64,000 nucleotides of DNA, taken from assembly GCA_964545975.1 (NCBI GenBank), contig CAZJHY010000002.1, positions 18,867 through 82,866 of the forward strand. Direction: 5' to 3'. Both the position numbers and the translations under genes were made by a program. Position 1 is the first letter of the stretch. Each line of letters starts with the position of its first letter. The notes under the pieces were generated by a model. The model made no database searches and was not told the origin of the DNA. It was given only the letters and a program-made list of their open reading frames with translations. Source of the stretch: an uncultured Clostridia bacterium (GTDB lineage Bacteria > Bacillota > DTU025 > MWDF01). Shown here piece by piece: positions 1,816 through 52,306 of this stretch.

Positions 1816-1885
1816 ATAGGTGCCCTCCCTTGGAAAAACTGGATTGTATTTTCATTATCGCACAGGTTATGATTCGTTGTAAGAT

Positions 1886-1990
1886 AACCGCGCTCCGAGC
1901 CGGACGACCTAAAGCGAGAAGCTATGGGCTTCCGGCCGACAGGGCCAGGGGGGAAACGCCCTGACCTCCCTTTTGGAAAGGATTGCGGCA
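1886..1990 (+). promoter_or_regulatory. Candidate molybdenum/tungsten cofactor (Moco/Tuco RNA motif) riboswitch aptamer
   Basis: CUCCGAGCC is at 1893-1901 and CCUCCC-N4-GGAAAGG is at 1965-1981. Closing helix: CCGC 1888-1891 with GCGG 1985-1988. Inner helices: GCCGG 1899-1903 with CCGGC 1932-1936, and CAGGG 1946-1950 with CCCUG 1959-1963. These were matched from memory to the published consensus and not searched. Confidence 0.6.
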
Positions 1991-2003
1991 GGCTTGAGTT
2001 TTC

Positions 2004-2045
2004 ATGCCGTGCCCTTCCTTCATGAGGATGGGCACGGCATTTTTT
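2004..2045 (+). terminator. Intrinsic terminator/attenuator (putative riboswitch expression platform)
   Basis: ATGCCGTGCCC (2004-2014) pairs with GGGCACGGCAT (2030-2040), followed by T5 (2041-2045). It ends only 11 nt before the ATG at 2057. Confidence 0.7.
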
Positions 2046-2056
2046 CGGAGGTACTG

Positions 2057-7819: not shown

Positions 7820-8528
7820 GGGCAGGTTCCAAAGGGAGATACTGCTCATAGGGCAGGAAGGGTATGAGAGGCTTAGGGATAGCCATGTTGCCGTCTTCGG
7901 CATCGGAGGCGTGGGCTCGTTCTGCGCCGAGGCGCTGGCAAGAGCCGGAGTTGGAGAGATAACACTAGTTGATTCCGACACCGTGCAGGAGAGTAACTCA
8001 AACAGACAGCTTGTGGCCCTTGGAAGTACCCTCGGCAGGGCTAAGGTGGACGTTATGGCCGAACGGATTCACGACATCAACCCCGATGCGACTACCCACC
8101 CGATTAAGGCCTGGTTCGGAGCAGAAAACGCCGATGAGATGCTATCAGAAGGGTTCGACTACGTAGCGGACGCGATAGACAGCGTGGAATCCAAGCTCAT
8201 GCTCATTGCCTCCTGCGTCAGAAAGGGCATTCCCGTGGCATCCAGCATGGGGGCCGGAAATAAGACCGACGCGACAGGTTATAGAATCGCCGACATCTCG
8301 AAGACCAAGGCATGTCCGCTGGCCAGGGTGATAAGGACCAGACTGAGGAAGGTGGGCATAACCGGCGGGGTCACTGCCATCTATTCCGACGATGAACCCT
8401 TATTAAGAAGGCCTGGGCCCCCAGGAAGCATCTCCTTCGTGCCACCAGTCGCGGGGCTTCTGCTCGCCCAGGCGGTAATAAACGCGCTTCTTGCCAGAAA
8501 TGAGGGGTATCTCCCCTTCATCGGATGA
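7809..8528 (+). CDS. tcdA: tRNA threonylcarbamoyladenosine dehydratase (ThiF/E1-like)
   Basis: GIGGVGSFCAEALARAGVGEITLVDSDTVQESNSNRQ and the overall length are typical of TcdA/CsdL. Confidence 0.8.
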   Translation: MGAEGRFQREILLIGQEGYERLRDSHVAVFGIGGVGSFCAEALARAGVGEITLVDSDTVQESNSNRQLVALGSTLGRAKVDVMAERIHDINPDATTHPIKAWFGAENADEMLSEGFDYVADAIDSVESKLMLIASCVRKGIPVASSMGAGNKTDATGYRIADISKTKACPLARVIRTRLRKVGITGGVTAIYSDDEPLLRRPGPPGSISFVPPVAGLLLAQAVINALLARNEGYLPFIG

Positions 8529-12548: not shown

Positions 12549-12599
12549 AACAATCGGGAGCTTGATACCGTCACAAAGCCATGAAGGCGGTGACACTCG

Positions 12600-17400: not shown

Positions 17401-18073
17401 ATTCCAGTATGTGGTAGTTGGGGCTGCTTGCCCTCAAACTGACGAGAGATACAACTCCACCAGTGATTAGCAGAACTCCGCCAATGGCGAAGGAAGCCAG
17501 ATAGGGTCTAAGGAACCTTTTACCGAGCAGGGCAGCAAGAAGGCCCGCTATCGAGAAAAGCTGCATGAAATTGAAGGATAACGCCAGGAAGGTAGGGTTT
17601 GACGCATCGTCGATAAGCGCAGGGAATGCTCCGAGATAGATCAGGAAATAGCAAAGAAGCATTACGAAGATAGTTACCGGCTGCATAAGCCAGATCCTGT
17701 CCTCCCTTGACCTAAGGACAAGATACTCTATGATGACGAAGCTTTGAGCTATCCTTACTACATATTGGATCTGCAAGCCGGCCTGCCCGGAGTAGTTCAG
17801 GAATGTAAGATATCCCAAATCGAACAGCAGGTGTATGTAAATGGACAGCCATGTGGCTATGGATGCGACCATGAGCGAGAAAGTATAGATGTCCTTGCTG
17901 TTGCGGTTCAGGTAATACAGGGTCACCATCGCCATCAAACCGATTGTCATGGAGCAGAAGCCGAAGAAGATATGCGTGGCTGCGTTGCCCTGCAAGGCTA
18001 TAAGAGCGATTGATGACAGGATCGCAAACGCTGATATACCCCATATGATAAACTCCCTGATCCTTCTGTACAT
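14474..18073 (-). CDS. Membrane-bound multi-PAS HD-GYP domain protein (probable c-di-GMP phosphodiesterase/sensor)
   Basis: The start was set to the ATG at 18073 (GGAGG 4 nt upstream). It has about 8 N-terminal TM segments and several PAS-like modules. The C-terminus reads HDIGKLHIP...HHERIDGNGYPRGL. Confidence 0.85.
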   Translation of the reverse strand: MYRRIREFIIWGISAFAILSSIALIALQGNAATHIFFGFCSMTIGLMAMVTLYYLNRNSKDIYTFSLMVASIATWLSIYIHLLFDLGYLTFLNYSGQAGLQIQYVVRIAQSFVIIEYLVLRSREDRIWLMQPVTIFVMLLCYFLIYLGAFPALIDDASNPTFLALSFNFMQLFSIAGLLAALLGKRFLRPYLASFAIGGVLLITGGVVSLVSLRASSPNYHILESLSYMFAYLSFYIGFTVPAIRGNLEMGIMPLLADRSSLIAALAHPAFITDTDMLIIAANKESEKWLKKSRMDLIGQTIYHILPEAEHLLKDMVSESRMTLRESTRQTQRLAGRHVSFTLYPSINPDNQATRFTFVGWDVSGEVKAEQNLERSERTYRSLFLHTGTGFMLYRLPVGSSNKEMELIDVNPAFERNTGEKGPFQLGGKLRENTSFLNAGWYDMILRAALDKRSVVIDGFSSGAQRWLYISAFPVTEETFGMVIADQTALRNFQREISASELKYRSLVESMPMCVLSLDSGYRITYVNDSLREMAELGSPEQYLGKALDEVFSEDYVQFFRKMRSEVDGKDATHSEELELIRNERKRWQRWIAKAVIDKGETMGYICLGQDITEQKEAAISMSLSEERFRTLFMDNYLPMLIVEADRYSVLMANKASQSFYGLSEQDLQGRTIISFSPPESSGSIEAMAGSAKDSGFGSMLTRQLASGGLVKDVELFASTLFLADKMVLSFTVNDISERRQMEDKLERERAYLDSLFENNPDAVVVIDSDIRITRANIAFRKLFGFSRSSIIGKTLSGLIGTELTAQDIESNIVKSIEGSKLDFTARRQRADGSIIPVRVICIPLTLPDGSRYVYAIYHDMSELAQSQQMLGLANEVIKESPAVLIKWSNQVDWSIEYVSSNVSRWGYSPDDLLGRKLMFTELVHEEDLANLTREADEYMQKGMSEYVQEYRLRMANGDFIWVEDHTKIVRATDGSIEGIQGVIIDNTEKKLAEIERLRTHEELKLAWNRSLDVLSSVTEFKDPYTAGHQRGVAEIAESIARQMGLSNGRVEAISKSALVHDIGKLHIPADILNRPRTLTPLEYKLVQMHCKSGRDILSNIKLPWPLAEIVFQHHERIDGNGYPRGLKGDEILLEAKIIAVSDIVDAMTSHRPYRPASSLPEALEEVLALRGTALDPDVVDACIAVFKDRGIEAIQPRS

Positions 18074-18104
18074 GCAGCCTCCGTTGCCCCGATGGCTTCT
18101 GCCA

Positions 18105-19919
18105 TTAGAAGGCGATGAACTCGAAGCCATCCTTGCCGAAAACTGCAAGGCAGGCATCCACTACTTCCCTGTCGAAGGTTATCGCCGATTTCGAGGCTAT
18201 CTCCTCCAACGCCGCCGCAATCCCGAGCGCCGGCCTGTATGGCCTGTTTGAGGACATGGCCTCCACGACGTCTGCTACTGCCAGTATCCTTGCCTCCTTC
18301 AGTATTTGGCTCCCTACAAGCCTGTTCGGGTAGCCGGACCCGTCCATCCTCTCATGATGCTGATAGGCGATTTCCGCAAGAGGCCAAGGAAATTCGATAT
18401 CCTTCAGGATACGCCAGCTCATCTCGCTGTGGGTCCTGAGAATCTCCAGCTCCACATCCTCAAGCCTGCCGGGTTTGGTAAGGATCTCGATGGGAATGTC
18501 AATCTTTCCAATATCGTGAACAATCCCTGCCAACTCCAGGCCCTTAAGGGCATCGGATGAAAGGCCCAGCCTGCTGCCTATAGCCTTTGCCAATTGCGCT
18601 ACCCTTCTTTGATGGCCCGCAGTGTAAAGGTCGCGCGCTTCAGATGCCGTGGCGAGCACGCTTATGGTCTGTATCCACGTCCGCTCAAGCTGCTTGACCT
18701 GGACCATAAGCCTCTCGTTAACGTCTCGGACCAGCCTTTCCGTGCTTTTGCGCTCTGTTATGTCATGGCTCATCCCGATTATGCCGGTAATCTTTCCGTC
18801 ATTGTCCTTGACAGGGGACAAGGTTATCTCAAAATCCCTTTCGCCGGTAAGAGTAGGCAGCCTTTCCTCTATGATGATGTTGCGGGTGCCTTCCAAGACC
18901 TTCAGGTCGAGCGCGCTGAGCCGGTCGGCGTTTCTTTTGGGCAGTATATCGTAATAGGTCATGCCAACCATGTCAGACGGAGGAAGGCCGCACCTGTCGG
19001 CCAGGGTCTTGCTGACCATCTGGAACCTTCCTTCAGTATCCTTATAGAAGATTCCGTCCGGGGCGACCTCAAATAGCGATCTGACGAAATCGAGGGCCTT
19101 CCTAAGCTCGTCTTCAAAAAGCTTCCTTTCGCTTATGTCCTGGTAAATCGCAAAAAACGCTACCTCCTGCTCCCTGTATGTTATGGGAAGCCCGATGAAG
19201 TGCACGTCAAGGAGCTTTCCATCCTTCCTCTTCCTTTTTCCCGTGGCGGAAAGCACATGCCCTGAGGAGCTCTCCCTGGTCAAGTCCATCGCTTCCGGAA
19301 GCTCCCCATGCGGGACGATCAGGTCATCGGCCTTCCGGCCAATCATTTCAGACCTCTCGAAACCGAACATGCTAGTACAGGCCTTGTTTATGTTTATAAT
19401 TGCCCCATCTCTTTCCGAGAGCATGATCGCCATCGGATAATTGTCGAAAAGCTGCTCGAGAAGCGCTACCTCAAGCCTGCCCTCCGAGCCCTGCCCCCGA
19501 GGATTGAAGGCGCTCATGTTCACCATGTATGATTCCGCGCCTATCTGCGTGCAGTAGGCCTCGAACCACATCCTCTTCTCCGGGCCGACCTTCAAAGGCA
19601 GGTCGAATGAGCGGATACCGGTGCTGAAAAGCTCATTGAGCTCAGCTTCTGCTACGTGGCTCCAGTTATCGGGGACAAAATCAGTCAGGGTGCGGCCGAT
19701 AAGGGCTTCAGCGGTCTCGCTGAAAAGCTCTGCAAAGGTTCTGCTCGCATGCAGGATGCGTCCGTCGGAGCCAAGCAGCACATTATGGAACATGCTTCCC
19801 GGGCCGATTGCAAGCGGCACGGCCTCATTATCATCGGCAGCAGCCCCTGCATCCTCGATTCCCATAATCGCAATTTTGAAGATGAGGCTTCGAACCCCAG
19901 TATATGGGCATGGCAACAA
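18105..19919 (-). CDS. PAS/HD-GYP domain protein; start uncertain and possibly the 3' part of a frameshifted longer gene
   Basis: HDIGKIDIP...HHERMDGSGYPNRL. Candidate starts are TTG 19919, ATG 19865 and ATG 19793, none with a good RBS. It overlaps the upstream PAS ORF by 89 nt in the +1 frame. Confidence 0.8.
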   Translation of the reverse strand: MLPCPYTGVRSLIFKIAIMGIEDAGAAADDNEAVPLAIGPGSMFHNVLLGSDGRILHASRTFAELFSETAEALIGRTLTDFVPDNWSHVAEAELNELFSTGIRSFDLPLKVGPEKRMWFEAYCTQIGAESYMVNMSAFNPRGQGSEGRLEVALLEQLFDNYPMAIMLSERDGAIININKACTSMFGFERSEMIGRKADDLIVPHGELPEAMDLTRESSSGHVLSATGKRKRKDGKLLDVHFIGLPITYREQEVAFFAIYQDISERKLFEDELRKALDFVRSLFEVAPDGIFYKDTEGRFQMVSKTLADRCGLPPSDMVGMTYYDILPKRNADRLSALDLKVLEGTRNIIIEERLPTLTGERDFEITLSPVKDNDGKITGIIGMSHDITERKSTERLVRDVNERLMVQVKQLERTWIQTISVLATASEARDLYTAGHQRRVAQLAKAIGSRLGLSSDALKGLELAGIVHDIGKIDIPIEILTKPGRLEDVELEILRTHSEMSWRILKDIEFPWPLAEIAYQHHERMDGSGYPNRLVGSQILKEARILAVADVVEAMSSNRPYRPALGIAAALEEIASKSAITFDREVVDACLAVFGKDGFEFIAF

Positions 19920-33690: not shown

Positions 33691-34338
33691 ATGAAGGGCT
33701 TGCGCATGATTGCAACGATTTGCATGCTTGCGGTCCTGTTTATGCTTGCTGGCTGCAGGGCATCCTGGGTGGTCGATTTCACGGAGGCGGAGGATGCAGA
33801 CCTTGATGATTGGGGAGGATACACATCCTGGAGCCTGAACGACCCTGAAGGCACCGGCCTTACCGTGCCTTACGATTACGTGATGACGCCGGTCGGCTTC
33901 CCTTCGGACTTCGCTCTTACGATTTGGATGAAGATGAAGACCAGCGAAATCAACAACGCGGACTTCAGGATATGGATCGCTGGAGATGAAAGCGATTATC
34001 CGGAGCACTACATAGAGTGCGTCTTCTCTGAAGCCGGGGATGAGGACAATGAGGAGGTGCTCATCCACGAGGACGGTGTAGGCATAGGCTACAGGGACGT
34101 GGACACCTTGAAACCGATTCCTGGGTTGAAGTCAGGAGACAATGTATTCAAGCTTGTAAGAAACGGCGACCATTATCGGATTACGGTGAATGGGGCGCTT
34201 CTTGCGAGCTTCGATGCACTTTACTTCGATCCTGAGGCATGCTATGTGGCTTTCGTCACACCCGACACTTCCGACGTAGTCATCTACTACACGAAGATCA
34301 AGGTAGATTACGAAGGGGAGACGGTCCCCCTGCATTGA
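33691..34338 (+). CDS. Hypothetical lipoprotein (beta-sandwich-like)
   Basis: Lipobox MLAGC with a strong GGAGGGGG RBS. No family was recognised. Confidence 0.6.
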   Translation: MKGLRMIATICMLAVLFMLAGCRASWVVDFTEAEDADLDDWGGYTSWSLNDPEGTGLTVPYDYVMTPVGFPSDFALTIWMKMKTSEINNADFRIWIAGDESDYPEHYIECVFSEAGDEDNEEVLIHEDGVGIGYRDVDTLKPIPGLKSGDNVFKLVRNGDHYRITVNGALLASFDALYFDPEACYVAFVTPDTSDVVIYYTKIKVDYEGETVPLH

Positions 34339-34369: not shown

Positions 34370-34843
34370 TTGAAGCATCTTAGTTTTAGGCTGACAATAC
34401 TCGTAATCCTGATTTCCATATTCATGCCGCACATAGCCCTTGCCGTGGATAAAGGGCTCAGCTACGAATGGGTCAGGGAAGGACTTACGGCTCCGCTGGC
34501 TGCCGTAAGCGGTGACGGTTCCGTCCTTGTAGCAGACGGCGAGCAGCTGTTGAGGCTCACCGGTGCTGGCGTTCAGCAATGGAGCATCAAGCTGGGTGAG
34601 AAAACAAAATTCCTGGAGGCGGACGCAAAGGGAGGATGCTGGGCAGCTTCCGATGAAACCGTCGCAAGGGTGCTGCCATCAGGTAAGGTCTCATGGACAT
34701 ATCGCTGCGATGAGAGGATCACCTGCCTGGAGCCCCTGCCCGACGGAAGGGTGCTTGTGGGGACCAGCCTGGGAGGCTTCCTGCTGGATGAGGATGGCAG
34801 GTTCGTGTGGCTGTACGACCCAGCCACCGGCTGCGACACTTGA
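34370..34843 (+). CDS. Secreted beta-propeller-like protein, N-terminal half; ends at an in-frame TGA
   Basis: TTG start and a signal peptide. PQQ-like blade motifs recur (G-x-V-x-W). The C-terminus is ..ATGCDT-TGA. Confidence 0.6.
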   Translation: MKHLSFRLTILVILISIFMPHIALAVDKGLSYEWVREGLTAPLAAVSGDGSVLVADGEQLLRLTGAGVQQWSIKLGEKTKFLEADAKGGCWAASDETVARVLPSGKVSWTYRCDERITCLEPLPDGRVLVGTSLGGFLLDEDGRFVWLYDPATGCDT

Positions 34844-34852
34844 ATACCTATC

Positions 34853-34880
34853 ATTCTTGGACCTGTAAGGTCCATGGAAT
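34853..34880 (+). other. Stem-loop immediately 3' of the in-frame TGA (SECIS-like candidate, or a structure occluding the next ATG)
   Basis: ATTC with GAAT forms the lower stem, with an internal loop. GGACC (34859-34863) pairs with GGTCC (34869-34873) around the loop UGUAA. Confidence 0.45.
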
Positions 34881-35461
34881 ACCTCGGCGGAGATGACATA
34901 CTCTTCCTCGGTCAGGTTTTCGGCATATACAGCGACATGGAGGCGCTCGACTACCTTACCGTGGTGAGCGTCAAATACGGGGACACATCTTACGACTGCA
35001 ATTACCTGTGGCCTTTCAATCTCTACGAGGCAGTGGCGGTGGCAAGGGATGCGATAGTAGTGTCTGCCGACTACCGGAGGGTCTGCAGATGGAACGGGGT
35101 AAGCGGCACGACGGTAGACTGGCAGGTATCAATCGATATCCCTTCCTACATCGTCAGGAGAGATGAGGGAAGCGTACTTGCGGTGGCCGATGATATGAGA
35201 ACAGCATTCCCGATCATGCTTTCCGACGGAAAGGTAGAAGCGGGTTCCTCCCTGCCGTTCGCAATTATCGCAAGACCTGCATCCCTGGGGGAAAATGGGG
35301 TGGCAATCGCGGGGCAGGGGGTAGTCGCCCTCCTCTCATGGGACCTTTTGGTCCTTGGGGAGATCCGCGACGACAGGATAGGTCAGGGGAGCATCCTAAT
35401 CCCTGATAGGGACTCAGTGATAGTAGTAGGGAGAGGATTTGTGGCGAAGATAGAGCTATAA
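34874..35461 (+). CDS. Beta-propeller-like protein, C-terminal half; same frame as 34370..34843, no signal peptide
   Basis: The ATG at 34874 is in phase with the upstream ORF, with 10 sense codons between the TGA and the ATG. Blade-like repeats continue. Confidence 0.55.
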   Translation: MEYLGGDDILFLGQVFGIYSDMEALDYLTVVSVKYGDTSYDCNYLWPFNLYEAVAVARDAIVVSADYRRVCRWNGVSGTTVDWQVSIDIPSYIVRRDEGSVLAVADDMRTAFPIMLSDGKVEAGSSLPFAIIARPASLGENGVAIAGQGVVALLSWDLLVLGEIRDDRIGQGSILIPDRDSVIVVGRGFVAKIEL

Positions 35462-36388
35462 GAAAGATGAGGGCTTTGCTGACCTGCAGGCGAAGCAGCG
35501 CAGCTTCGTGAAGCCCTCGCTTGTATAGAGCCTGAGCGCAGTCTCGTTGTCCGCATTCACGCTAAGAGTAGTCACTCCGAAGCCCTTCACGCTGGCGACC
35601 GAAACGAGGCTTCTGAGAAGCGCCCTGCCGAGCCCCATGCCCTGCCTGTCGGGAAGCACCGCTATAGGCCCGATGTTCATCGAGGGCTTGCCTTCAAGCA
35701 CATCTCGTGAACCTCTGGCCACGGCAACGGCCGTGCCCCGTTCTTCCAGCATCAGCATGGCTCCATCGATTCCATCGGTCGAGGAGGCCATCAAAGAGAC
35801 TTCTTCGGGAGACTGCGGCGCCTCATTGCCCTTAACCGCGGCGAAGGCGGCGTTTCTTACCTTGCACCATGCATGCTCATCCTTCCCCATTACAAAGGGC
35901 CTGATAGCGAAGCCTTCAGGAAGGGCGACTTCACCAGGCGGAAGCGCAGTGTCCCTCTTAAGGGAGTATACATTCCTTTCGATAGTGAAGCCCAAATCAT
36001 CGAGAAGGCCGCTCAGATGTGCGTCCTCAAGTGGCGCGAAGAAGTAGGCCGTATCTATGCCGGCGGCCTCCTTCATCAACTCGGCAAGAAGGAGGGCATA
36101 GTCCTCTCTGGACCCTTTTGGGCACCAAAGGATCCTGAAGCGCGCCTTCCTTGCGGCAACCGCCCTTGCTGTGAGCATGATGGACGCGGCGCCTGCGATG
36201 GACCCATCACATCCAGCAAGAATGCACGTCGGGTCGGCCTCACCGACGGCGAAGCCATGAAGCTCCTCATCGGAAAGATACGAGCCGTCGACCTTCTCCC
36301 TGCTGGCAATGCAGAACTCCTTGAACTCCCCCAGGCGGTCCGCATCAAGCTTAATGACTTCCAAGAGGTCACCACCCTCCGTACGCAA
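35456..36388 (-). CDS. Tandem-GNAT acetyltransferase (MshD-like architecture)
   Basis: The C-terminal block is IAVLPDRQGMGLGRALL and an N-terminal degenerate GNAT is present. It has a TTG start, which is uncertain. Confidence 0.65.
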   Translation of the reverse strand: MRTEGGDLLEVIKLDADRLGEFKEFCIASREKVDGSYLSDEELHGFAVGEADPTCILAGCDGSIAGAASIMLTARAVAARKARFRILWCPKGSREDYALLLAELMKEAAGIDTAYFFAPLEDAHLSGLLDDLGFTIERNVYSLKRDTALPPGEVALPEGFAIRPFVMGKDEHAWCKVRNAAFAAVKGNEAPQSPEEVSLMASSTDGIDGAMLMLEERGTAVAVARGSRDVLEGKPSMNIGPIAVLPDRQGMGLGRALLRSLVSVASVKGFGVTTLSVNADNETALRLYTSEGFTKLRCFACRSAKPSSFL

Positions 36389-36393
36389 TCTAA

Positions 36394-37302
36394 TCAGAAA
36401 TCCGTCAGCTCTCCAGAGATGCCCAGCTTATCAAGAGGGATGATGGCCCGTACGGTCATCTGTGGGTCCACGCACTGGCTTATGCGCAAGTCGACGAGAA
36501 GGCTTGCCATCATGTAGGCCTCCTCCCATCCGATGCCGCACGCCCTTGAGATATATCTGACAGCCGAATCTGTAGCTGACCGCGCCGCATCCTCAAGATC
36601 CGCTCCGGAAGATACGACCATCAGCTTGCTTCCTCGCCTGATTGCCGGCCAGCTTATGCTTAGATTCTTCACAACACTCACCTGAACGAGAACCTTAGCG
36701 GCTATCTCAAGGCCGGTGACGCAGGCCTCTCCGTCGGCCATTAGGGCATGGACGTCGCCAATGGCAAGCATCGCCCCCTCCTGGCTTACAGGAAGGTATA
36801 GGGTTGAGCCTTCTGAGATGTCCTTTGTGTCCATGTTTCCGCCGTGCCTTCCGGGAACGCCTGTAGATACCCGGCCCTGCTCCGAAGACGTCGCGACGCC
36901 GATTACGCCTATCATGGGGGAAACGGGAAGGAGCCTTCCTGCAAAGCTTGCCATCCCGGAGGAGACGGGGATGACTTTGGTTACGGATTTCTTCACTTTC
37001 GCGCCGAGAAGCCCGGCACCCGGGATTACGCTGATGACTCCACGGGAAGCGACCTCGATTGAAAGCACCGAGACGGAGAGGACGTCTCCGGGCTCTGCCC
37101 CTTCGATGAAGACCGGCCCTGTGGCGGGATTCAGGCAGGAGAAATCCACCTTGTCTATATCCTGGCCTTCGGAGCTCATCTGGCCGTGCCAGCAGTCGTG
37201 GGTCTCGAAAAGTATCAGCTCGCCGGGCTTTGCGAAAGCCACAGGGCTCATCGCAGGGGTGAATGCGCCCACTGAGCTCTCCTTTGGTATCCTTAGCATC
37301 AC
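36394..37302 (-). CDS. Acetamidase/formamidase (FmdA_AmdA) family amidohydrolase
   Basis: Motifs are GPVFIEGAEPGDVLSV, GGNMDTKDI and AIGDVHALMADGE. Confidence 0.8.
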   Translation of the reverse strand: MMLRIPKESSVGAFTPAMSPVAFAKPGELILFETHDCWHGQMSSEGQDIDKVDFSCLNPATGPVFIEGAEPGDVLSVSVLSIEVASRGVISVIPGAGLLGAKVKKSVTKVIPVSSGMASFAGRLLPVSPMIGVIGVATSSEQGRVSTGVPGRHGGNMDTKDISEGSTLYLPVSQEGAMLAIGDVHALMADGEACVTGLEIAAKVLVQVSVVKNLSISWPAIRRGSKLMVVSSGADLEDAARSATDSAVRYISRACGIGWEEAYMMASLLVDLRISQCVDPQMTVRAIIPLDKLGISGELTDF

Positions 37303-37314
37303 GCCACCTCCCGA

Positions 37315-38109
37315 CTACTTAAGGAAATTCCACTCATCCGCCCTGTATTTGCCTACAAGCTCCGTGGCTCGCCTAACCTCTGCATCGCTAAGGCCTGCCT
37401 CAGTAAGGGGCGAACCCACCAGCTTTCCGAACTCCTCTGAGATGGACCCAGTAAGCTCATAGGCCCCGACCTTCCTGCCGAGCGCCTCATCCACGGTCGC
37501 AATCCCTCCGGTAAGCCTTCCTTTCATGGTTTCCGGGAGGGCGCACACCTTCAAAAGCGCATCTATATCGGCGGACATGAGTATGGAGCCATGCTGCAGG
37601 AAGTGCCTTCCCGACCTGAACTGCGCGCTTCCTATGATCTTCCTGCCCCTCCAGGCGACCTCGAAGCTGGACGGCACGTCGAAGCAGGCGGCTGTCTTCT
37701 CCTTGCCCCTGTCGCTGTAAGCCGGCACAAGGTCGGCCGCTATCCCGTATGCCTTAAGCCCGTCTGACAGGGCGCTGCTGATCATCATGTAAACGTCGAG
37801 GACAGCCCCTCCCCCGAAGAGAAGGGAGTCGGCGATTACGCTGTACGTAAGCTCGTCGTCATGGAGCACGGCGCGGCCTCCGGTCCTTCTTCTCACCATC
37901 GTGAAGCCTCTGGACCGCACCTCCTCCATGTCGCATGATTCCACCGCCTTCTGGTTGTAGCCCAATGAAAGGCAGGGCGGATTCCATGTATAGAACCTGA
38001 GGGTGGGCGGAGATGCGCCGGCTATTACGGATTCGAGCACCGCCTCATCGGCCGCCATGTTCCAGGCGCCCTCCGATGCTGGCGATATGATAAGCCTCCA
38101 CTGCGCCAA
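37315..38109 (-). CDS. Lipoate-protein ligase / octanoyltransferase (LplA/LipM-type catalytic domain)
   Basis: Motifs are PTLRFYTWNPPCLSLGYNQ, RRRTGGRAVLHDDELTYS, GRKIIGSAQFR and LQHGSIL. Confidence 0.8.
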   Translation of the reverse strand: MAQWRLIISPASEGAWNMAADEAVLESVIAGASPPTLRFYTWNPPCLSLGYNQKAVESCDMEEVRSRGFTMVRRRTGGRAVLHDDELTYSVIADSLLFGGGAVLDVYMMISSALSDGLKAYGIAADLVPAYSDRGKEKTAACFDVPSSFEVAWRGRKIIGSAQFRSGRHFLQHGSILMSADIDALLKVCALPETMKGRLTGGIATVDEALGRKVGAYELTGSISEEFGKLVGSPLTEAGLSDAEVRRATELVGKYRADEWNFLK

Positions 38110-38123
38110 ATGAATCCCTCCCG

Positions 38124-39122
38124 TCAGTCCAGCATAAGACCCTCAAGGGCCATAGACAGAGCCTTCTCGGATTCCTCGCTGGTCAGCGCCTTAGGGTAGT
38201 TGTAGAGCTCCGCGCCCGGGCTTTCGTTGTAGTAGGGCCTGTTGCAGAAGCTGCAGCCGGAAGTAAGAAACGGGGAACCTCCTGCTGCCAGCAAGACTAT
38301 GTCGTGCTCCTTAAGCGAGATGCCGCTGAGCCTTCCATCTACATCGAAGCGCATCCCATCCGCCTTAAGGTCATGGTGTTTAATCAGCCAGAAAGCGAGC
38401 TGCACCCTCCTGTAGGAGCGGATGTCCGGCTTTGGGTGCCCTTCCATCTCCGTACCCCTAAGGGGGGTGAAGGCGAACAGGCCGAGGCCTACACCCATAT
38501 CCTTCATCTTGGCAGCGAGAAGGAGCAGGTCTTTTTCGGTTTCGCCCATTCCTGAGATCAGATGGGTCGATATTCTCCCCGGGTACTTGGAAGAAGCCTC
38601 GGAGATGAGCCTCATCGAAGCCTCCATGGAGGACTTCTTTATCAGAAGGTGCAGCTTAGGATTGCAGGCGTCTATCGAGAGGGCAACCTTGTCGGCTCCC
38701 GCCTCGATAATGCTTCCTATGTCGCCTAAACCCGCCGTCGCGCTGAATGATACAGATATCGGTGTTCCGCCCTCGCAGGCATCTCTTAGCTTTCCCACTG
38801 CAGCCACGACTGCCTTCAGGGATGAGCTTCCTCCAACGGTCTGAATGCAGACACGCCTGATGATGCCGGTTGCTGTGGCAGCACCAAGGGCCTGCATGAG
38901 CTCCTTCTCTTCTGCCTCCGGCCAGGTGATCCGGGACAGCCTGCCCGCGCCGGCGCCGCTTCTTCTTGCCTGGGCGCAGAACGCGCAGTCTCTTACGCAC
39001 TTCTCCCCCAGCATGATGTAGGCGGTGGTAGGAAGGGCGTCGGCCTTAATGTCCATGAGGCCCAAAGCGGCCATGGTCCCGGAGGACGGCCTGAACTTAA
39101 GGGCCTGCCCTGGGTCATCCAT
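38124..39122 (-). CDS. Radical SAM protein, biotin-synthase-like; candidate LipS1/LipS2-type lipoyl synthase subunit
   Basis: CVRDCAFC equals CX3CX2C, and there is no LipA-type CX4CX5C motif. The gene sits between the ligase and a second rSAM gene, which it overlaps by 8 nt. Confidence 0.65.
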   Translation of the reverse strand: MDDPGQALKFRPSSGTMAALGLMDIKADALPTTAYIMLGEKCVRDCAFCAQARRSGAGAGRLSRITWPEAEEKELMQALGAATATGIIRRVCIQTVGGSSSLKAVVAAVGKLRDACEGGTPISVSFSATAGLGDIGSIIEAGADKVALSIDACNPKLHLLIKKSSMEASMRLISEASSKYPGRISTHLISGMGETEKDLLLLAAKMKDMGVGLGLFAFTPLRGTEMEGHPKPDIRSYRRVQLAFWLIKHHDLKADGMRFDVDGRLSGISLKEHDIVLLAAGGSPFLTSGCSFCNRPYYNESPGAELYNYPKALTSEESEKALSMALEGLMLD

Positions 39123-39987
39123 CCTTCCTCATCCCCCTTCCGAGGGCGGGGAAGACGCAGCATTCATCCGCTGCAAGCACTTCGAAGCCTTCAGACTGCG
39201 CCCAGAGCACTGCCTCCTTCGCCGGCATGACGATTATGTCTGCGCCTGCTTTCAAGGCAAGGATGTCCAGCCTGGAGCGATACCCACCGGCCGGCCTCAT
39301 GCAGCCCAGCGAGACAGGAGAATTCGGGAAGGTCTCCTTCGCATGCCTTATCACATCGGCGGCTGTAGCCTCAGAAGGAGGCATTACGCCTTCCATCCTT
39401 GTCCCCTTGGTGGGCCTGAACACAATAACGACAACTCCGGGTGGCTCCGGTATGCTGCCGGAATCGGCCAAAGCCCTTATTTCATCCAGGACGCCGACGG
39501 AGAAGTACGGTTCGGAATCCGGTCCCAGCAGCCCTACCGTTATGTGGGGGATGGTGGGTACAGCGTTTGATGCCAGCACGAAGCTTCTCACATAGTCCCC
39601 CGGAGCCGACTTCGAACCATATACACCCTCAGTTATCCTTATGTCGTTTACATAGTCGAAAGAGATGACGTCGGCAACACCCGCAAGCCTTGAGATCCCA
39701 TCCTCATCCAATATGCCAGTATGGCAATTAATGGAAAGGTGGGGATGATCCTCGGATACCCTCTCGGGCCAACCCTCTATCGGGACATGTCCATAGGCAT
39801 CGCTTCCGCCTGAGATGAGCACGCTTCTTGCCGACAGGTCGATGAAGGCCGCCAGCGCTTCATCCGGCGGCCTCATCCCCTTCAGGTATCTAGCGCCGCA
39901 GTGGGCGCAGTTTAGCCCGCAGGCCTCACCGGTGACGGATATCGCCACGGTGGCCGTGGGGCGAGCGAAGATGACCTTCCTACTCAT
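39115..39987 (-). CDS. Radical SAM protein; candidate second LipS1/LipS2-type lipoyl synthase subunit
   Basis: CGLNCAHC equals CX3CX2C. It overlaps gcvPB by 8 nt. Confidence 0.65.
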
Positions 39988-41449
39988 TGTCCGCTTTAGT
40001 CCACCTCAGTACCGGTTTTCTTGCAGCAAGCGTCTCATCCAGCCTTCCGACCGGAGTGTTGTGGGGCGCTGAGTGCAGGTTCTCCGGGTTCTCCTTCGCT
40101 TCCTTAGCTATCTCCCTCATCGCCTCGATGAAGGAGTCCAGGGTCTCTTTGCTCTCAGTCTCGGTGGGCTCAATCATTATCGCCTCCTCGACTATGAGGG
40201 GGAAGTAGACTGTGGGGGCATGGTAGCCGTAGTCCAGGAGCCTCTTTGCCATGTCGAGGGTCCTTACTCCGCTCTCCTTCTTCTGCTTGGCTCCGGAGAG
40301 CACGAATTCGTGCTTGCAGGTCCTGTCGAAGTTGAGCTGGAAGTCGCTTTTAAGCTCGTGCATGAGGTAGTTGGCGTTTAGCACCGCTAGCTCGGATGCC
40401 GCCTTGAGGCCGTCCGGGCCCATCGTCCTGATGTAAGCCCAGGTCCTAAGAAGCACGCCGAAGTTGCCGTTGAAGGAGTGCACGTGGCCTATGGAATCCG
40501 GCCTGTCGAAGTCCCACCTGTACATGCCGCCGTTGAGCTCCACCAGGGGCTTGGGGAGGAATGGCTCAAGGAACTTCTTCACGCCGACTGGGCCTGCTCC
40601 CGGCCCTCCCCCGCCATGGGGCGTGGAGAAGGTCTTATGCAAATTCAGGTGGACGACGTCGAAACCCATGTCGCCGGGCCTGGATTTGCCCATTATGGCG
40701 TTTGCGTTCGCCCCGTCGTAATAGACGAGGCCGCCCGCGTCATGGACTATCTCGGTAATATCGCAGATATGCTCGTCGAAAAGGCCGAGCGTGTTGGGGT
40801 TCGTGAGCATGAGCGCCGCTGTGTCGGGACCTACCTTCGCCTTCAGGTCCTCAATGTCCACGTTGCCCCTCGCGTCCGATGCCACCTGTATGACCGTCAT
40901 CCCGGCGGCCGCCGCGCTTGCAGGGTTGGTGCCGTGAGACGAGTCGGGGGCCAGTATCTTGTCCCTCTTGCAGTCCATCCTGCTGAAGTGGTAGGCGCGG
41001 ATAATGAAAAGGCCGGTTAGCTCACCATGGGCGCCTGCCACCGGCTGGAGCGTGAACCTGTCCATGCCGCAGATCTCGGAAAGCCATAGGTCGAGGTCAT
41101 GGATGACCTTAAGGGCGCCTTGCGCGCCACGCTCCGGCATATCGGGGTGCAGCCTGGCAAAGCCGGGAAGCCTCGCCGCATCCTCGTTTATTTTCGGGTT
41201 GTACTTCATAGTGCAGCTTCCCAGAGGGTAGAATCCCGTGTCGACGCTGTGGTTAAGGTTCGAGAGGTTCACGAAGTGCCTCACCACGTCAACCTCGGAG
41301 ACTTCGGGTAGCCCCGGAGCTTGCTTTCTAATCATGCTGTCCGGCACCATGGACTCCACGGCAAGTTCCGGCACGTCCGAGGCAGGAAGGCTTACGCCCA
41401 CCCTTCCGGGCCTGCTCATCTCGAAAATCAGGGGCATGAGCCTCTTCAT
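39980..41449 (-). CDS. gcvPB: Glycine dehydrogenase (aminomethyl-transferring) subunit 2
   Basis: Typical GcvPB sequence including the PLP-Lys block [16 protein letters not shown]. Confidence 0.93.
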
Positions 41450-42798
41450 CTTGCGCTCACCTCCAGTAGGGATACGAGCCTGTCCATCTGCTCCCTGGTG
41501 CGAAGCTCGGTCACCGCCCAGAGGGAGTTGTGCTTAAGCTCGGGGTATGCGGTTGAAAGGGGTAATCCTCCGAGCATGCCTTCATCCAATAGCCTGTCTC
41601 TAAGCTCAGCCGCGCAGCCATCGCCCTCTATTGCAAACTCGTTGAAGAATGGACCTGTAAACTTGAGCTTATAGGGCGTCTTCTCTGAGATGCTCTTCGC
41701 CAGGTAGTGTGCCTTCCACATGGAAAGCTCCGCTGCCTTTCTAAGGCCTTTGGGACCCATCAGGCTCAGGTGTATCGTGGCAGCAAGCGCGCATAGAGCC
41801 TCGTTGGAACAGATGTTGCTAGTGGCGTTCTCTCGCCTTATGTGCTGCTCTCTGGTCTGAAGCGTCAGGACGAATGCCCTCTGGCCGCGGTTGTCCAGCG
41901 TCTGGCCGACGAGCCTTCCCGGCATGCGCCTTACCAGCTGCTGGGTCGCCGCCATGAAGCCGAGGAGCGGGCCTCCGAAGTTCATGCCGTTTCCCATCGA
42001 CTGTCCCTCGCCGACTGCGATGTCGGCGCCGTAGGCTCTCGGTGCTTCAAGCACAGCGAGGCTTACCGGGTTAACCACCGTGACGAAGAAGCCCCCGTCT
42101 GAGTGGGCTGCCTCCGAAAGCCCGTGCATGTCCTCTATCACGCCCAGGTAATTGGGATTTTGAGCTATCACGCAGGCAGCCCCTTCCGCAGCCTTCCTGA
42201 GCTCCGCCGCGTCTGTCTGGCCTGTCTTGGGGTCGAAGGGGACTTCCACGACCTCGTACTCCCTGGGTTCGGCATAGGTCTTGACCACCTCGCGGTAGCG
42301 CGGGTTGGTTGCCCTGGTGATGACTACCTTCTTCCTGCCGGACTGGCTTGCGCACATTATCGAGGCTTCGGCGGCTGCCGTGCCGGCGTCATACATCGAT
42401 GCGTTCGCCTGGTCCATGCCGGTGAGCTCGCATATCATCGTCTGATACTGGAAGATCGCGGTGAGGGTCCCCTGGCTTACCTCCGGCTGATAGGGCGTAT
42501 AGGCTGTGTAGAACTCGCCGCGCCTTAGCATGTGGTCCACCACGGATGGCACGAAGTGGTCGTAGATGCCGCCTCCTGCGAAACAGACCGCGCATGCATC
42601 ATTCATTTTGGCTATCATGTCCAGCTCGGCTACCAGCTCGGGCTCCGAAAGAGATTCGGGGATGTCGAGCTTCCCGGTGAACCTAAGGCCCTCGGGGATA
42701 TCGGAGAAAAGGTCATCGATGCTCTTTGCGCCTATCGCATCCAGCATCTCGCGCACTTCCTGCTCGGTCGCAGGAAGGTAATGGCGAGGAGCTCCCAT
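41446..42798 (-). CDS. gcvPA: Glycine dehydrogenase subunit 1
   Basis: [17 protein letters not shown]. It overlaps gcvPB by 4 nt. Confidence 0.93.
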
Positions 42799-42816
42799 AT
42801 CCAGCTACCTCCTAAC

Positions 42817-43188
42817 TTAATGCTGCGACTCGAGGAACTTGCGGTAAGCTGCCTCGTCCATCAGCGCATCCAGCTCGGCGGGGTTCGCCGCCTCGATTTT
42901 CACTATCCAGCCATCTCCCTGGGGGGATTCGTTGATTATTCCGGCGTTGCTGCCTACGCCCTCGTTTACTTCAACGACCTTGCCGCTGACAGGCGAGAAT
43001 ACCTCGGCTACCGCCTTCACTGATTCGAGGTCCACGAGCTTTGCGCCCTTCTTCACGGTCGAACCGACCGCGGGAAGTTCAGCGAAGATCACGTCGCCGA
43101 GGTGCTCGGCCGCGTAATCGCTTATGCCCACTGTGACGAGCTTGCCCTCTGCCTTTGCCCATTCATGGCTGTCTGCGTACTTGAACAT
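42817..43188 (-). CDS. gcvH: Glycine cleavage system H protein
   Basis: The lipoyl-lysine block is ESVKAVAEVFSPVSGKV. Confidence 0.93.
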   Translation of the reverse strand: MFKYADSHEWAKAEGKLVTVGISDYAAEHLGDVIFAELPAVGSTVKKGAKLVDLESVKAVAEVFSPVSGKVVEVNEGVGSNAGIINESPQGDGWIVKIEAANPAELDALMDEAAYRKFLESQH

Positions 43189-43226
43189 CTCTCCAACCTC
43201 CGTATGTTTATTTCAGTGCTTGTCCA

Positions 43227-44354
43227 TCAAGGCTTCTTATAGGCTTTCTTGTAGAATGGAGTCTTCACGACGACCGCCTTCATCGCCCTGTCTCTTATCT
43301 GGACTGCTATTTCGGTGCCGGTCTTCGCGTAGGCGATGGCAACCTGCGCCATGGCGAGATTCTTGCCCAGTGTCGGGCTGGGAAGCCCGCTTGTGACCCA
43401 GCCGATCTCCGCGCCTTCGGGGGAGAGCACCTTGTAGCCGTTTCTGGGTATGCCCCTGTCTATGAGCTCGACTCCTACCTGCTTTCTTGCAAGGCCATTC
43501 TCCTTCTGGGCGATGAGGACGTCCTTTCCGATGAAGGAGGGCTTGTCCAGCTTCACGAAGTAGCCAAGCGACGCTTCAAGCGGGGTGATGTCCTTCGAAA
43601 GCTCGTGGCCGTACAGCGGCAGGCATGCCTCGAACCTGAGCGAATCCCTCGAGCCGAGCCCGCAGGGCGATACTCCGAGGTCCTCGCCGGCCTTCATCGC
43701 GCTCTCCCAGACATTGACTGCATCCTCCGGCTTCATATAGATTTCGAAGCCGTCCTCGCCGGTATAGCCCGTTCGGGAGATAAGGCACTCCGCACCTGCT
43801 ATGCCTACATTTTCCTTGCAGTAGAAGAACTTGAGCTCGTCGAGGTTGTAGTCGGTGAGCCTCTGCACCAGCTCCTGCGCCTTGGGTCCCTGCACCGCGA
43901 TTTCCGCCCATTCGGCCGATTCGTTGACGACCGTGCAGTCCCAGCCCTCGGCCTGCTTTCTGATCCATTCGTAGTCCTTGTCGGAATTGGAGGCGTTGAC
44001 AACGAGGAAGAACTCCTCGTCGGAGAGCTTGTAGGCGAGAAGGTCGTCCACTATGCCGCCTTCCGGGTAGCACATCTGGGCGTATGTGACCTGGTTCATC
44101 TCGGCGCCTGCGACGTCGTTTGTTATGAGGTTGTCCACGAACTTGAGCGTGGCCGGCCCCTTGACCCTTATCTCGCCCATGTGGGACACGTCGAAAAGGC
44201 CGACTGCCTCCCTCACGGTCCTATGCTCCTCAAGGTCGCCCTTGCCCTTGTACCTTACCGGCAGCTCCCAGCCGCCGAAGTCGACGATCATCCCGCCGTA
44301 TTTTATGTGCATCTCGTATAGCGGGGTCCTCTTCAATCCTGACAATCGGGACAC
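43227..44354 (-). CDS. gcvT: Aminomethyltransferase (glycine cleavage T protein)
   Basis: LKRTPLYEMH..GWELPVRY. The GTG at 44354 abuts the GGAG, so the TTG at 44345 (RBS spacing about 8) may be the real start. Confidence 0.92.
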   Translation of the reverse strand: MSRLSGLKRTPLYEMHIKYGGMIVDFGGWELPVRYKGKGDLEEHRTVREAVGLFDVSHMGEIRVKGPATLKFVDNLITNDVAGAEMNQVTYAQMCYPEGGIVDDLLAYKLSDEEFFLVVNASNSDKDYEWIRKQAEGWDCTVVNESAEWAEIAVQGPKAQELVQRLTDYNLDELKFFYCKENVGIAGAECLISRTGYTGEDGFEIYMKPEDAVNVWESAMKAGEDLGVSPCGLGSRDSLRFEACLPLYGHELSKDITPLEASLGYFVKLDKPSFIGKDVLIAQKENGLARKQVGVELIDRGIPRNGYKVLSPEGAEIGWVTSGLPSPTLGKNLAMAQVAIAYAKTGTEIAVQIRDRAMKAVVVKTPFYKKAYKKP

Positions 44355-50292: not shown

Positions 50293-50700
50293 ATGGCCCA
50301 TGGCCCGGTTTGTTTCGCACCCATAGGAAAAATGAGCATGCGGATGATCAGGAGGGATAAGGTGGAGTTGATCGATTCACACCCTATACTGGAATTCAAG
50401 CATGGAAGGGAAGTGGAGTTCACGTTCGACGGGGCCTTGTTGAAAGGCTTCGAGGGTGAACCCATAGCAGTCGCCCTGCACGCAAACGGCGTGAAGGTAT
50501 ACAGGCATAGCCCCGTGGATAGAAGGCCGCGGGGTTTCTTCTGCGCCATAGGGAAGTGCAGCTCATGCTTCATGGTAGTAGACGGGATTCCTAACGTAAG
50601 GACCTGCGTGACTCCCTTGAAGGAGGGCATGGCTGTCCAGACCCAGCATGGCAGGGGAGCGCTTCCCCCAGCGGAGACGGGGGGGCGGGACGATGCTTGA
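50293..50700 (+). CDS. [2Fe-2S]-binding small subunit (HcnA / sarcosine-oxidase-alpha N-terminal-like)
   Basis: FTFDGALLKGFEGEPIAVAL..RGFFCAIGKCSSCFMVVDGIPNVRTC. The start is more likely the ATG at 50332. Confidence 0.7.
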   Translation: MAHGPVCFAPIGKMSMRMIRRDKVELIDSHPILEFKHGREVEFTFDGALLKGFEGEPIAVALHANGVKVYRHSPVDRRPRGFFCAIGKCSSCFMVVDGIPNVRTCVTPLKEGMAVQTQHGRGALPPAETGGRDDA

Positions 50701-51781
50701 GACGGAGATTCTCGTAATAGGAGGAGGGCCGGCCGGCCTGTCGGCCGCTTGCGAGGCGGCATCCATGGGCGCGGGCGTGATGCTTGTGGACAGCGCCCCG
50801 ATGCTCGGAGGGCAGCTCATCAAGCAGACGCACAAGTTCTTCGGAAGCCGGGACGAGTATGCCGGAACCAGGGGCTACAAGATATCAGACATATTGCTTG
50901 AGGAGCTCAAAGGGCTATCCGGCAGAGTGAGCGCGATGACTGACACCACAGCTACGGGCTACTACAGGGAGGACGGCACCGTGGCCCTTACAAGAGGTGA
51001 GGAGGAGTACTTCCTGGTTAGGCCGAAGAAGATCATCCTTGCCGCAGGCGCGCAGGAGAGGCTCATACCATTTCCCGGAAACGACCTGCCCGGAGTCTAC
51101 GGAGCGGGTGCCGTGCAGACGCTGATGAATGTGTACGGTGTAGCACCCGGCAAGAAAGTGCTCATGGTAGGCGCCGGAAACATCGGCATAATCGTAGCCT
51201 ATCAGCTCATGCAGGCGGGAGTGGAGGTCGCAGGGGTGCTCGAGGCAATGCCAAGAGTGGGCGGCTATTGGGTGCATGCTGCGAAGATCAGGCGCCTGGG
51301 CGTGCCCATCCACCTCATGCACAGCATAAAGAGGGCTGTCGGAGACACCGTGGTCACCGGCGCCGAAGTCATGGAGCTAGATGAGAGGTTCAAACCTACC
51401 GGTATAGAATTCGCCGTCGAATGCGACACCATCTGCCTTGCAGTAGGGCTCACTCCCACGGTCGAGATGCTGTGGCAGGCCGGCTGCCAGATGAAGTACG
51501 TATCCCAGCTTTGCGGATATGTTCCGGTAAGGGACTGCGGCCTGAGGACTACAAACAGGGACATCTGGGTCGCCGGCGACTCTTCCGGGATAGAGGAGGC
51601 GAGCTCAGCCATGGTAGAAGGAAGGCTTGCCGGGCTTGGAGCCGCATCGTCGCTCGGATATAAGCCGATTGCAGGAAGGTATGAGAGCTTCATGGCAAGG
51701 CTCGAGCACCTGAGGGCCGGGGAAGTGTGCGACAAGATCAGGGCGGGCATCGCCTGCGCCCTTTGCGAAGGAGGCGAGTGA
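50693..51781 (+). CDS. FAD/NAD(P)-binding oxidoreductase subunit (HcnB/OoxA/PDH-alpha-like)
   Basis: The start was set to the ATG at 50693 (8-nt overlap). First dinucleotide fold is ILVIGGGPAGLSAA and the second is VLMVGAGNIGI. Confidence 0.75.
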   Translation: MLETEILVIGGGPAGLSAACEAASMGAGVMLVDSAPMLGGQLIKQTHKFFGSRDEYAGTRGYKISDILLEELKGLSGRVSAMTDTTATGYYREDGTVALTRGEEEYFLVRPKKIILAAGAQERLIPFPGNDLPGVYGAGAVQTLMNVYGVAPGKKVLMVGAGNIGIIVAYQLMQAGVEVAGVLEAMPRVGGYWVHAAKIRRLGVPIHLMHSIKRAVGDTVVTGAEVMELDERFKPTGIEFAVECDTICLAVGLTPTVEMLWQAGCQMKYVSQLCGYVPVRDCGLRTTNRDIWVAGDSSGIEEASSAMVEGRLAGLGAASSLGYKPIAGRYESFMARLEHLRAGEVCDKIRAGIACALCEGGE

Positions 51782-51784
51782 GCG

Positions 51785-52306
51785 ATGCCAACCGCAGAAG
51801 AGCTTCTGTACGGCTCCGGAGTGCTCGCCGACAGAAGGCCCGGTGTCTGCGTCCCTGAGGATGCGGACTGGTTAAGGAAGAGGAACGGCTACGTGGTGAT
51901 AGAGTGCCCCCAGAGGATACCCTGCAATCCGTGCCACACCAGCTGCCCCACAGGAGCCGTGCTCCCCTTCGAGGACATAAACGACGTGCCGAAGGTGGAT
52001 TACTCCAAATGCACAGGATGCGCGAGGTGCGTCGCAAGATGCCCGGGGCTTGCCTGCTTCGTGGTGGACCTCGCCTGGAAAGAGGGCTGGGCGCTCATGA
52101 AGCTGCCCTATGAGATGCTTCCCAGGCCTGTGAAGGGCATGGAGGCGGAATGCCTCGACAGGCAGGGCAATGCTGTATGCCGGTCGATGATAGAGCAGGT
52201 CTTGGAACCCTTCAAGGACCGCACCTACGTCGTGGCCGTGCCCGTGCCCATAGAGCTTAAGGACAAGGTCAGGGCGGTAAGGGTGGTGAGATCCGATGCC
52301 AGGTAA
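51785..52306 (+). CDS. 2x[4Fe-4S] ferredoxin-like subunit
   Basis: Cluster motifs are CPQRIPCNPCHTSCP and CTGCARCVARCP. Confidence 0.7.
   Translation: MPTAEELLYGSGVLADRRPGVCVPEDADWLRKRNGYVVIECPQRIPCNPCHTSCPTGAVLPFEDINDVPKVDYSKCTGCARCVARCPGLACFVVDLAWKEGWALMKLPYEMLPRPVKGMEAECLDRQGNAVCRSMIEQVLEPFKDRTYVVAVPVPIELKDKVRAVRVVRSDAR

Follow-up and report, generated by a model that had tools for sequence, protein, structure and literature searches.

Gene organization at the locus

The DNA stretch analyzed here (64,000 nucleotides (nt) of contig CAZJHY010000002.1 from an uncultured Clostridia bacterium; hereafter the window) carries on its forward strand two open reading frames (ORFs), 34370..34843 (TTG start, 157 amino acids (aa)) and 34874..35461 (ATG start, 195 aa), which lie in an identical frame and are separated by the TGA at 34841–34843 and ten sense codons (IPIILGPVRS). 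Direct reading of the sequence confirmed this layout, which had been described in an earlier note on the same DNA, and gave G-C-D-T as the last residues ahead of the TGA. As the earlier note had also stated, only the first ORF has an N-terminus resembling a signal peptide (MKHLSFRLTILVILISIFMPHIALA/VD, judged by eye), and comparable hydrophobic N-termini are present in homologues. The AAGG that had been placed 4 nt ahead of the second ATG lies in fact 3 nt ahead of it (AAGG 34867–34870, ATG 34874). The evidence given below indicates that the two apparent neighbouring genes are probably a single gene, which codes for an exported eight-bladed beta-propeller and in which the UGA is decoded as selenocysteine (Sec). 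The coordinates of all features are listed in Table 1.

The TGA is found at the identical codon in all homologous loci

Homologues of the propeller gene were collected from independent metagenomes and metagenome-assembled genomes (MAGs; Logan, ENA, JGI and NCBI), resulting in a set of the window plus 15 other loci (designated by L numbers) with 11 distinct junction sequences. The initial protein search returned C-half-sized products only; on the contigs encoding them, these are preceded in frame by another ORF, which ends in TGA at the identical codon. Seven further loci were obtained from genome and metagenome scans. Whole-protein identity ranged from 85% down to 38% across the loci, the nearest of which belong to MAGs labelled uncultured Clostridia or Bacillota. 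Three distant subfamilies (L011, L012–L015 and L016), whose N-halves are approximately 24–30% identical to that of the window, have TGA at the aligned codon in each case. Altogether, TGA occupied the identical codon in all 16 loci, the window counted (11 of 11 distinct junctions). TGA, a nearby Cys and a downstream hairpin (both described below) recurred in register at 15 of the 15 homologous loci examined; because all three recur at identical positions in every one of these loci, their arrangement is not a product of chance.

A phmmer search was performed against 1.84 billion representative proteins, and all statements on this search, here and below, refer to the best 150 of 256 matches. Many of these were N-half-sized ORFs (143–166 aa) stopping exactly at query residue 157, and others were C-half-sized ORFs starting at query residues 160–190. 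The earlier note had predicted that homologues would carry either Cys or TGA at the UGA codon; the TGA part of this prediction held in all loci, whereas no homologue with Cys was present among the best 150 matches. P0011, a JGI product (L016:770–1798), was the sole protein of more than 300 aa spanning both halves. It was rejected as an uninterrupted homologue, since its "W" is a TGA in the DNA at the aligned position: the gene contains eight TGG codons and one TGA, and this TGA, which falls at the aligned Sec position, is written as Trp in the public gene call. In public records, the halves are labelled "hypothetical protein" or "outer membrane protein assembly factor BamB", and some homologous N-halves have a precomputed PF13360 match.

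A genome-wide reassignment of TGA was rejected because TGA is the stop codon of 16 of the 50 window ORFs of at least 150 codons. As a separate observation, a Trp codon in the C-terminal half of one homologue (L012:9290–9292) was changed from TGG to TGA; this second, non-conserved stop is absent from L013–L015 and thus represents sequence variation, an error or pseudogene formation at that locus.

Coding-type selection extends across the UGA

The most conserved stretch of the protein straddles the UGA (FVWLYDPATGCDT-U-IPIxLGPVRSxxYLGGD). The ratio of nonsynonymous to synonymous polymorphism (pN/pS), computed on seven near-clade sequences, was 0.18 for the ten codons following the UGA (+1 to +10) and 0.28 for the five codons ahead of the hairpin (+1 to +5), with values of 0.30 and 0.20 for the 30 codons upstream and downstream, respectively. 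Differences in the Pro, Ile, Leu, Gly and Val codons after the UGA were mostly synonymous. Past the UGA, the first in-frame ATG, GTG or TTG is codon +11 for the window clade, +8 for the L001 clade, +4 for L002, +1 for L003, +20 for L011 and +19 for L012, and none occurs within 39 codons in L016. The Shine-Dalgarno-like AAGG is confined to the window clade, and the window ATG at 34874 is replaced by Leu or Ala in other members of the family.

The joined sequence is predicted to form one eight-bladed propeller

The structure of the joined sequence was predicted with AlphaFold2 on alignment A7 (full-length sequences and C-halves); the MAFFT alignments A5 and A6, in which N- and C-half fragments were overlaid, were discarded. 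The model consists of one domain (mean predicted local distance difference test score (pLDDT) 82.9, predicted template modelling score 0.79), and its confidence was low only in the signal peptide region (pLDDT < 50 for residues 1–28) and at residues 155–159, the site of the unknown residue. Foldseek aligned approximately 350–380 columns of the model to eight-bladed propellers, among them E. coli BamB (3prw; template modelling (TM) score 0.72/0.74, root-mean-square deviation 3.9, 371 columns), and also matched the designed proteins Cake8 and Tako8 as well as Bacillus YxaL. The joined protein, with approximately 338 residues in its mature form, is therefore predicted to be one complete BamB/YxaL-like eight-bladed propeller, and the view of the earlier note that the two halves constitute one propeller, each alone being half a fold, agrees with the single fold returned by AlphaFold2 and Foldseek. 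According to a blade assignment based on the AlphaFold2 strand list, the UGA lies between strand 1 (residues 145–149) and strand 2 (residues 162–173) of blade 4. Provided that this assignment holds, a closed propeller would be out of reach for either ORF by itself, and a product with M169 as its first residue would be without half a strand.

Family assignments were weak: the sole Pfam match was PQQ_2 (PF13360; 18.3 bits, gathering threshold 27.6), the sole match in NCBIfam release 20.0 was BamB (TIGR03300; 15.3 bits, cut-off 285.2), and the C-terminal five blades had no family match. The protein thus scores far below the BamB cut-off and also has no lipobox Cys, and none of the curated selenoprotein family models in NCBIfam release 20.0 and Pfam-A scored above its cut-off.

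Because conservation spans the stop codon, the codons following it are under coding-type selection, no restart site is conserved and the joined sequence corresponds to one propeller domain, we conclude that translation continues across the UGA to give a single polypeptide.

A conserved hairpin downstream of the UGA fits the bacterial SECIS model

The earlier note had described a stem-loop starting 9 nt past the TGA, with ATTC/GAAT as lower and GGACC/GGTCC as upper stem. The presence of the stem-loop, its start and the GGACC/GGTCC arms were borne out (GGACC 34859–34863, TGTAA 34864–34868, GGTCC 34869–34873); the lower stem belongs to the minimum free energy (MFE) fold of the window, whereas the conserved core proved to be the upper 6-bp hairpin. 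RNAalifold placed this hairpin in register in all sequences, with the stem beginning 14 nt and the loop 20 nt past the UGA and with 97.4% paired cells over the 11 distinct sequences. The loop consists of 5 nt (N-G-U-N-N), of which positions 2–3 are G-U in every sequence. The closing pair (54–70 in alignment A8) is UA in five, GC in four, AU in one and CG in one of the sequences, and a further pair of the hairpin varies between AU, GU and GC. None of 500 column shuffles equalled the observed covariation score, and shifting the 3' partners lowered the pairing to 9–58%.

The codons within the hairpin were restricted accordingly: Arg is encoded by AGG in ten sequences and by CGG in one, Ser always by UCC, and Gly by GGA or GGG only, while the third positions of the Pro and Val codons fall in the loop and vary freely. 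Since synonymous sites are restricted exactly as the pairing requires and the third positions in the loop are free, the alignment indicates that the hairpin RNA itself, and not merely the peptide GPVRS, is under selection. In locus L008, the 5' arm of the hairpin carries a CCT-to-CTT change (L008:166–168), which replaces Pro by Leu in GPVRS and keeps the pair as U-G; the coverage of this contig is approximately 1.9x and the change may be an error.

The model for bacterial selenocysteine insertion sequence (bSECIS) elements comprises a loop of 3–9 nt, an upper stem of 4–16 bp, G[G|U] in the first loop positions, a distance of 16–37 nt between UGA and loop and an MFE of -7.5 kcal/mol or lower (PMC13188914, Fig. 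2). The conserved hairpin agrees with all four criteria of this model through its 5-nt loop, 6-bp stem, G-U and 20-nt spacing together with its MFE, which for the region from the UGA to +42 was between -10.1 and -14.8 kcal/mol over the 11 sequences (window, -13.1 kcal/mol; window hairpin core, -8.1 kcal/mol). A pattern search for copies of the hairpin in the 16 fetched loci matched at the propeller gene only, and an Rfam search of nine related loci at the gathering threshold gave no match.

An invariant Cys precedes the UGA

Cys155 was invariant in 17 N-half sequences and in 11 of 11 distinct junction sequences. The CxxU context noticed earlier, in which Cys lies three residues ahead of the UGA, thus extends over the family, with the exception of the P0011/P0124 subfamily, whose ORFs end right after the Cys and which therefore has a CU motif. 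On the AlphaFold2 model, Cys155 and Sec158 would be located within blade 4, on a loop of 12 residues that includes a short helix; the model is all-beta with the motif in this loop, and no thioredoxin-like alpha/beta fold was found in it. Because the Cys-Sec spacing differs between subfamilies (CxxU, CU), the sequences point to a binding scaffold that carries a simple pair of chalcogen residues, and not to a thioredoxin-type active site. Most likely, the Cys/Sec pair would act at the cell envelope, where the two residues would either serve redox chemistry through a selenenylsulfide or bind a soft metal or metalloid as ligands.

Identity of the inserted residue and alternative explanations

The proposal of the earlier note, namely one secreted propeller with a UGA recoded as Sec in a CxxU context and followed by a SECIS-like hairpin, was supported, with all tests that were run in agreement. 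We infer that the inserted residue is Sec and that the genome possesses the Sec machinery. In the mechanism that we propose, SelB with Sec-tRNA(Sec) would be held by the hairpin located 14–33 nt past the UGA (6 bp, N-G-U-N-N loop), which is encoded by the invariant peptide G-P-V-R-S, as the ribosome arrives. Sec would be placed at residue 158, and translation would go on through the remainder of blade 4 and through blades 5–8. The precursor would then be exported via the Sec translocon, its signal peptide would be cleaved after ALA, and Cys155 and Sec158 could either be joined reversibly as a selenenylsulfide or serve together as soft ligands.

Several results weigh against a decoding as Sec. 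Searches of the 64-kb window and of the 10-kb flanks of the loci, which represent a small part of each genome, recovered neither tRNA-Sec nor SelA, SelB or SelD; in the window, the Pfam scan for SelA, SelB and SelD domains covered 30 of approximately 58 ORFs. The phmmer search, with its 150 best matches, did not return a Cys-containing homologue, and a standard line of selenoprotein evidence is thereby removed. As for the hairpin, conservation of the ATTC/GAAT lower stem does not extend to L001, L003, L011, L012 and L016, the conservation of GPVRS could in part be due to selection at the protein level, and an Rfam search of the junction with E-values up to 10 yielded chance snoRNA-like matches and no SECIS family. 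The hairpin is moreover small, and the z-scores of single-sequence folding relative to shuffled sequences (+0.1 to -1.7) were not significant, so that the case for the hairpin rests on covariation and on the constraint at synonymous sites.

Among the alternatives, it is conceivable that the UGA is read through and a standard amino acid is inserted, either Cys by a tRNA(Sec)-like tRNA(Cys) and SelB, or Trp or another residue by near-cognate read-through. UGA-to-Cys recoding via SelB-dependent tRNAs is reportedly found in uncultured bacteria, all evidence for read-through would fit a standard residue equally well, and the Sec machinery was not seen in the regions covered. Nevertheless, we consider this explanation unlikely: TGC or TGT, or TGG, variants would be expected in a family this old and this diverged, and none was found among the 150 best matches, which argues against an ordinary amino acid. 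In addition, the geometry of the hairpin and its G-U loop are of the type of a SelB-dependent element, and a Cys/Sec pair is the usual context of selenoproteins.

The two ORFs could also represent translationally coupled genes, in which case the UGA would be a true stop, the hairpin would aid re-initiation, and a secreted N fragment together with a C fragment would form a split propeller. This would explain why gene callers annotate two ORFs everywhere, and it would be compatible with the AAGG that precedes the ATG 11 codons past the stop in the window and with the ATG located immediately after the TGA in L003. The restart position, however, varies between six different codons from +1 to +20 and is missing within 39 codons in L016, and the coupling via AAGG and ATG that the earlier note had considered is contradicted by this and by the Leu or Ala found elsewhere in place of the ATG. 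Furthermore, the codons between the stop and the possible starts are under coding-type purifying selection and encode part of a predicted beta-strand (residues 162–173), the break falls inside blade 4, and the second product, although needed by an exported partner, would lack a signal peptide. Coupled genes are thus a very improbable explanation. The interrupted frame in the window, taken alone, might suggest a pseudogene created by a nonsense mutation, or a TGA introduced during sequencing or assembly. The probability of either is practically negligible, given that the TGA is shared by 15 other loci, which stem from independent samples and were assembled independently, that both flanks are under purifying selection and that the 24–85% range of identities excludes copies of one contaminant.

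Relationship to known selenoproteins and propeller proteins

With the UGA read as Sec, recoding would proceed by the ordinary bacterial mechanism, in a protein family not previously recognised as a selenoprotein. The locus therefore probably defines a new exported Sec-only selenoprotein family of uncultured Bacillota, for which a redox or metal-binding role of the Cys/Sec pair may be surmised. In the family table of PMC13188914 and in the deep-Sep and BSepDB papers, there was no propeller, PQQ, BamB or PF13360 entry, and a full-text literature search combining selenocysteine, beta-propeller, SECIS and bacteria returned nothing relevant.

The family shares a UGA beside a conserved Cys, a downstream hairpin within the coding sequence that fits the bSECIS model and TGA-containing homologues in several organisms with known CxxU/CU selenoproteins (GrdA, SelW-like, AhpD-like, HdrA and MerB-like SaoL; PMC13188914, Table 1). 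In contrast to these proteins, which have small redox folds (thioredoxin-like, AhpD), it is predicted to be an eight-bladed propeller, has no NCBIfam or Pfam selenoprotein match and no Cys homologue among the best 150 matches, and is unlisted in the 2025–2026 surveys searched. Work outside the cytoplasm is shared with predicted extracytoplasmic selenoproteins such as a TonB-dependent receptor, MtrB/PioB-family proteins, the ExtKL cytochrome and DsbA/DsbG-like proteins (PMC12013277, PMC13188914), which differ in having unrelated folds and Cys homologues. Nearly all selenoprotein families have Cys counterparts (review PMC13188914).

BamB, YxaL and PQQ-like propellers (PF13360; 3prw, 7dxn) have in common with the protein the predicted fold (Foldseek TM scores of approximately 0.64–0.72), export and a weak PQQ_2 similarity, and many PQQ-like repeat proteins matched the N-half in the phmmer search; these propellers have no counterpart of the blade-4 Cys/Sec loop, and BamB has a lipobox, whereas a type I signal peptide is predicted here. 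The SECIS elements of E. coli fdhF and Moorella thermoacetica fdhA are short SelB-binding hairpins that follow closely on the UGA and present G-U in their apical loop. A short hairpin soon after the UGA and the G-U apical loop are shared by the propeller family, several members of which have a GGUC loop start like fdhF; the stem of the family is shorter (6 bp) and lacks a conserved bulged U, conservation does not include the lower stem, and SelB binding is a prediction.

If Sec is confirmed, bacterial selenoproteins would gain the beta-propeller as a new fold, together with a rare family that uses Sec in every known member. It is a tentative and rather doubtful extension of this view that the propellers form an obligately selenium-dependent exported family, with Sec in every member and an envelope chemistry of the Cys/Sec pair in which Sec is not replaceable by Cys, for example extracellular selenenylsulfide redox catalysis or the capture of metals or metalloids. 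The family would in that case also be the first selenoprotein on a propeller scaffold, and discovery pipelines based on Sec/Cys pairs would systematically miss Sec-only families. In current databases, these genes appear as two fragments named "hypothetical protein" or "BamB", or carry Trp in place of the UGA. The compact hairpin overlapping the invariant GPVRS could be used for probing minimal SelB recognition in Bacillota. We consider the family to be of moderate to high interest for selenoprotein biology and of lower interest for general biology, the mechanism being canonical.

Table 1. Features of the propeller gene and the adjacent upstream gene (window coordinates).
Feature	Position	Strand	Description	Basis or conservation
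Whole propeller gene	34370..35461	+	363-residue precursor; TTG start; TAA stop 35459–35461; internal UGA is codon 158	Single frame; homologues alike; one domain in AlphaFold2
Predicted signal peptide	34370..34444	+	Approximately 25 residues (...HIALA/VDKG); type I, no lipobox	Read from the sequence by eye
Cys155 codon	34832..34834	+	TGC; partner of the putative Sec	Invariant across the family
In-frame UGA	34841..34843	+	Codon of residue 158, putative Sec	Aligned codon is TGA in every homologous locus
Ten codons from UGA to second-ORF ATG	34844..34873	+	IPIILGPVRS; translated coding sequence, not spacer	pN/pS and synonymous differences
Lower stem	34853..34880	+	ATTC 34853–34856 / GAAT 34877–34880	Exact only in the window and L004; partial in other close relatives
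Putative bSECIS core	34856..34876	+	6-bp stem 34858–34863/34869–34874; 5-nt loop UGUAA 34864–34868; outer C-G pair 34856/34876	RNAalifold; covariation
Upstream lipoprotein gene	33691..34338	+	215 aa; LAGC lipobox; 31 nt ahead of the propeller gene; no Pfam or NCBIfam match	

Genomic neighbourhood and other observations

The lipoprotein gene upstream of the propeller gene is probably co-transcribed with it. In L002 and L001, the gene immediately preceding the propeller gene codes for an orthologue of the lipoprotein (83% and 54% identity, respectively), which is not found at this position in L011 or L012. Because conservation of the lipoprotein is limited to the near clade and other genes flank the propeller gene in the distant subfamilies, the gene context gives no functional lead. 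L011 and L012 share divergent neighbours (L011:4989–8445, L012:3509–6722), which include a DUF6305 protein, a protein of approximately 435 aa without an assigned family, an ORF of 49–51 aa and an AstE/AspA-like protein of approximately 380 aa; L011 additionally encodes a SurA_N/TPR protein. Beyond the propeller gene, synteny is kept between window positions 35456–44354 (reverse strand) and L001:6301–15185, in a block coding for a GNAT protein, an FmdA-like amidase, a lipoate-protein ligase, a radical SAM protein and the glycine-cleavage proteins P2, P1, H and T.

Housekeeping genes in the window include those for FtsH, TilS, a MurD-like ligase and FolD, the glycine-cleavage operon and LiaF-like genes. 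Another pair of ORFs in one frame, a Pyr_redox_2 gene (50648–51781) and a 4Fe-4S ferredoxin gene (51785–52306) at window positions 50648–52306 (forward strand), is separated by a single TGA (...CALCEGGE*AMP...); located inside an HcnABC/opine-oxidase-like cluster, these are probably ordinary adjacent genes. A molybdenum cofactor (Moco)/tungsten-cofactor riboswitch (1881–1999, forward strand, 64.5 bits) lies ahead of an ORF without a Pfam match (1973–3007), and is followed, up to approximately position 8528, by NMT1-like and ABC transporter genes and a ThiF/MoeB-like gene (7809–8528). A 1383-aa ORF at 59802–63953 (reverse strand) had no Pfam match at E-values up to 0.001, and its product, taken from the longest-ORF start, is not on record. 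Finally, the region 10668–19919 contains two tandem S8 subtilase genes with N-terminal CarboxypepD_reg domains, beside which two large multi-PAS/HD_5 (HD-GYP-like) signalling proteins are encoded on the opposite strand.

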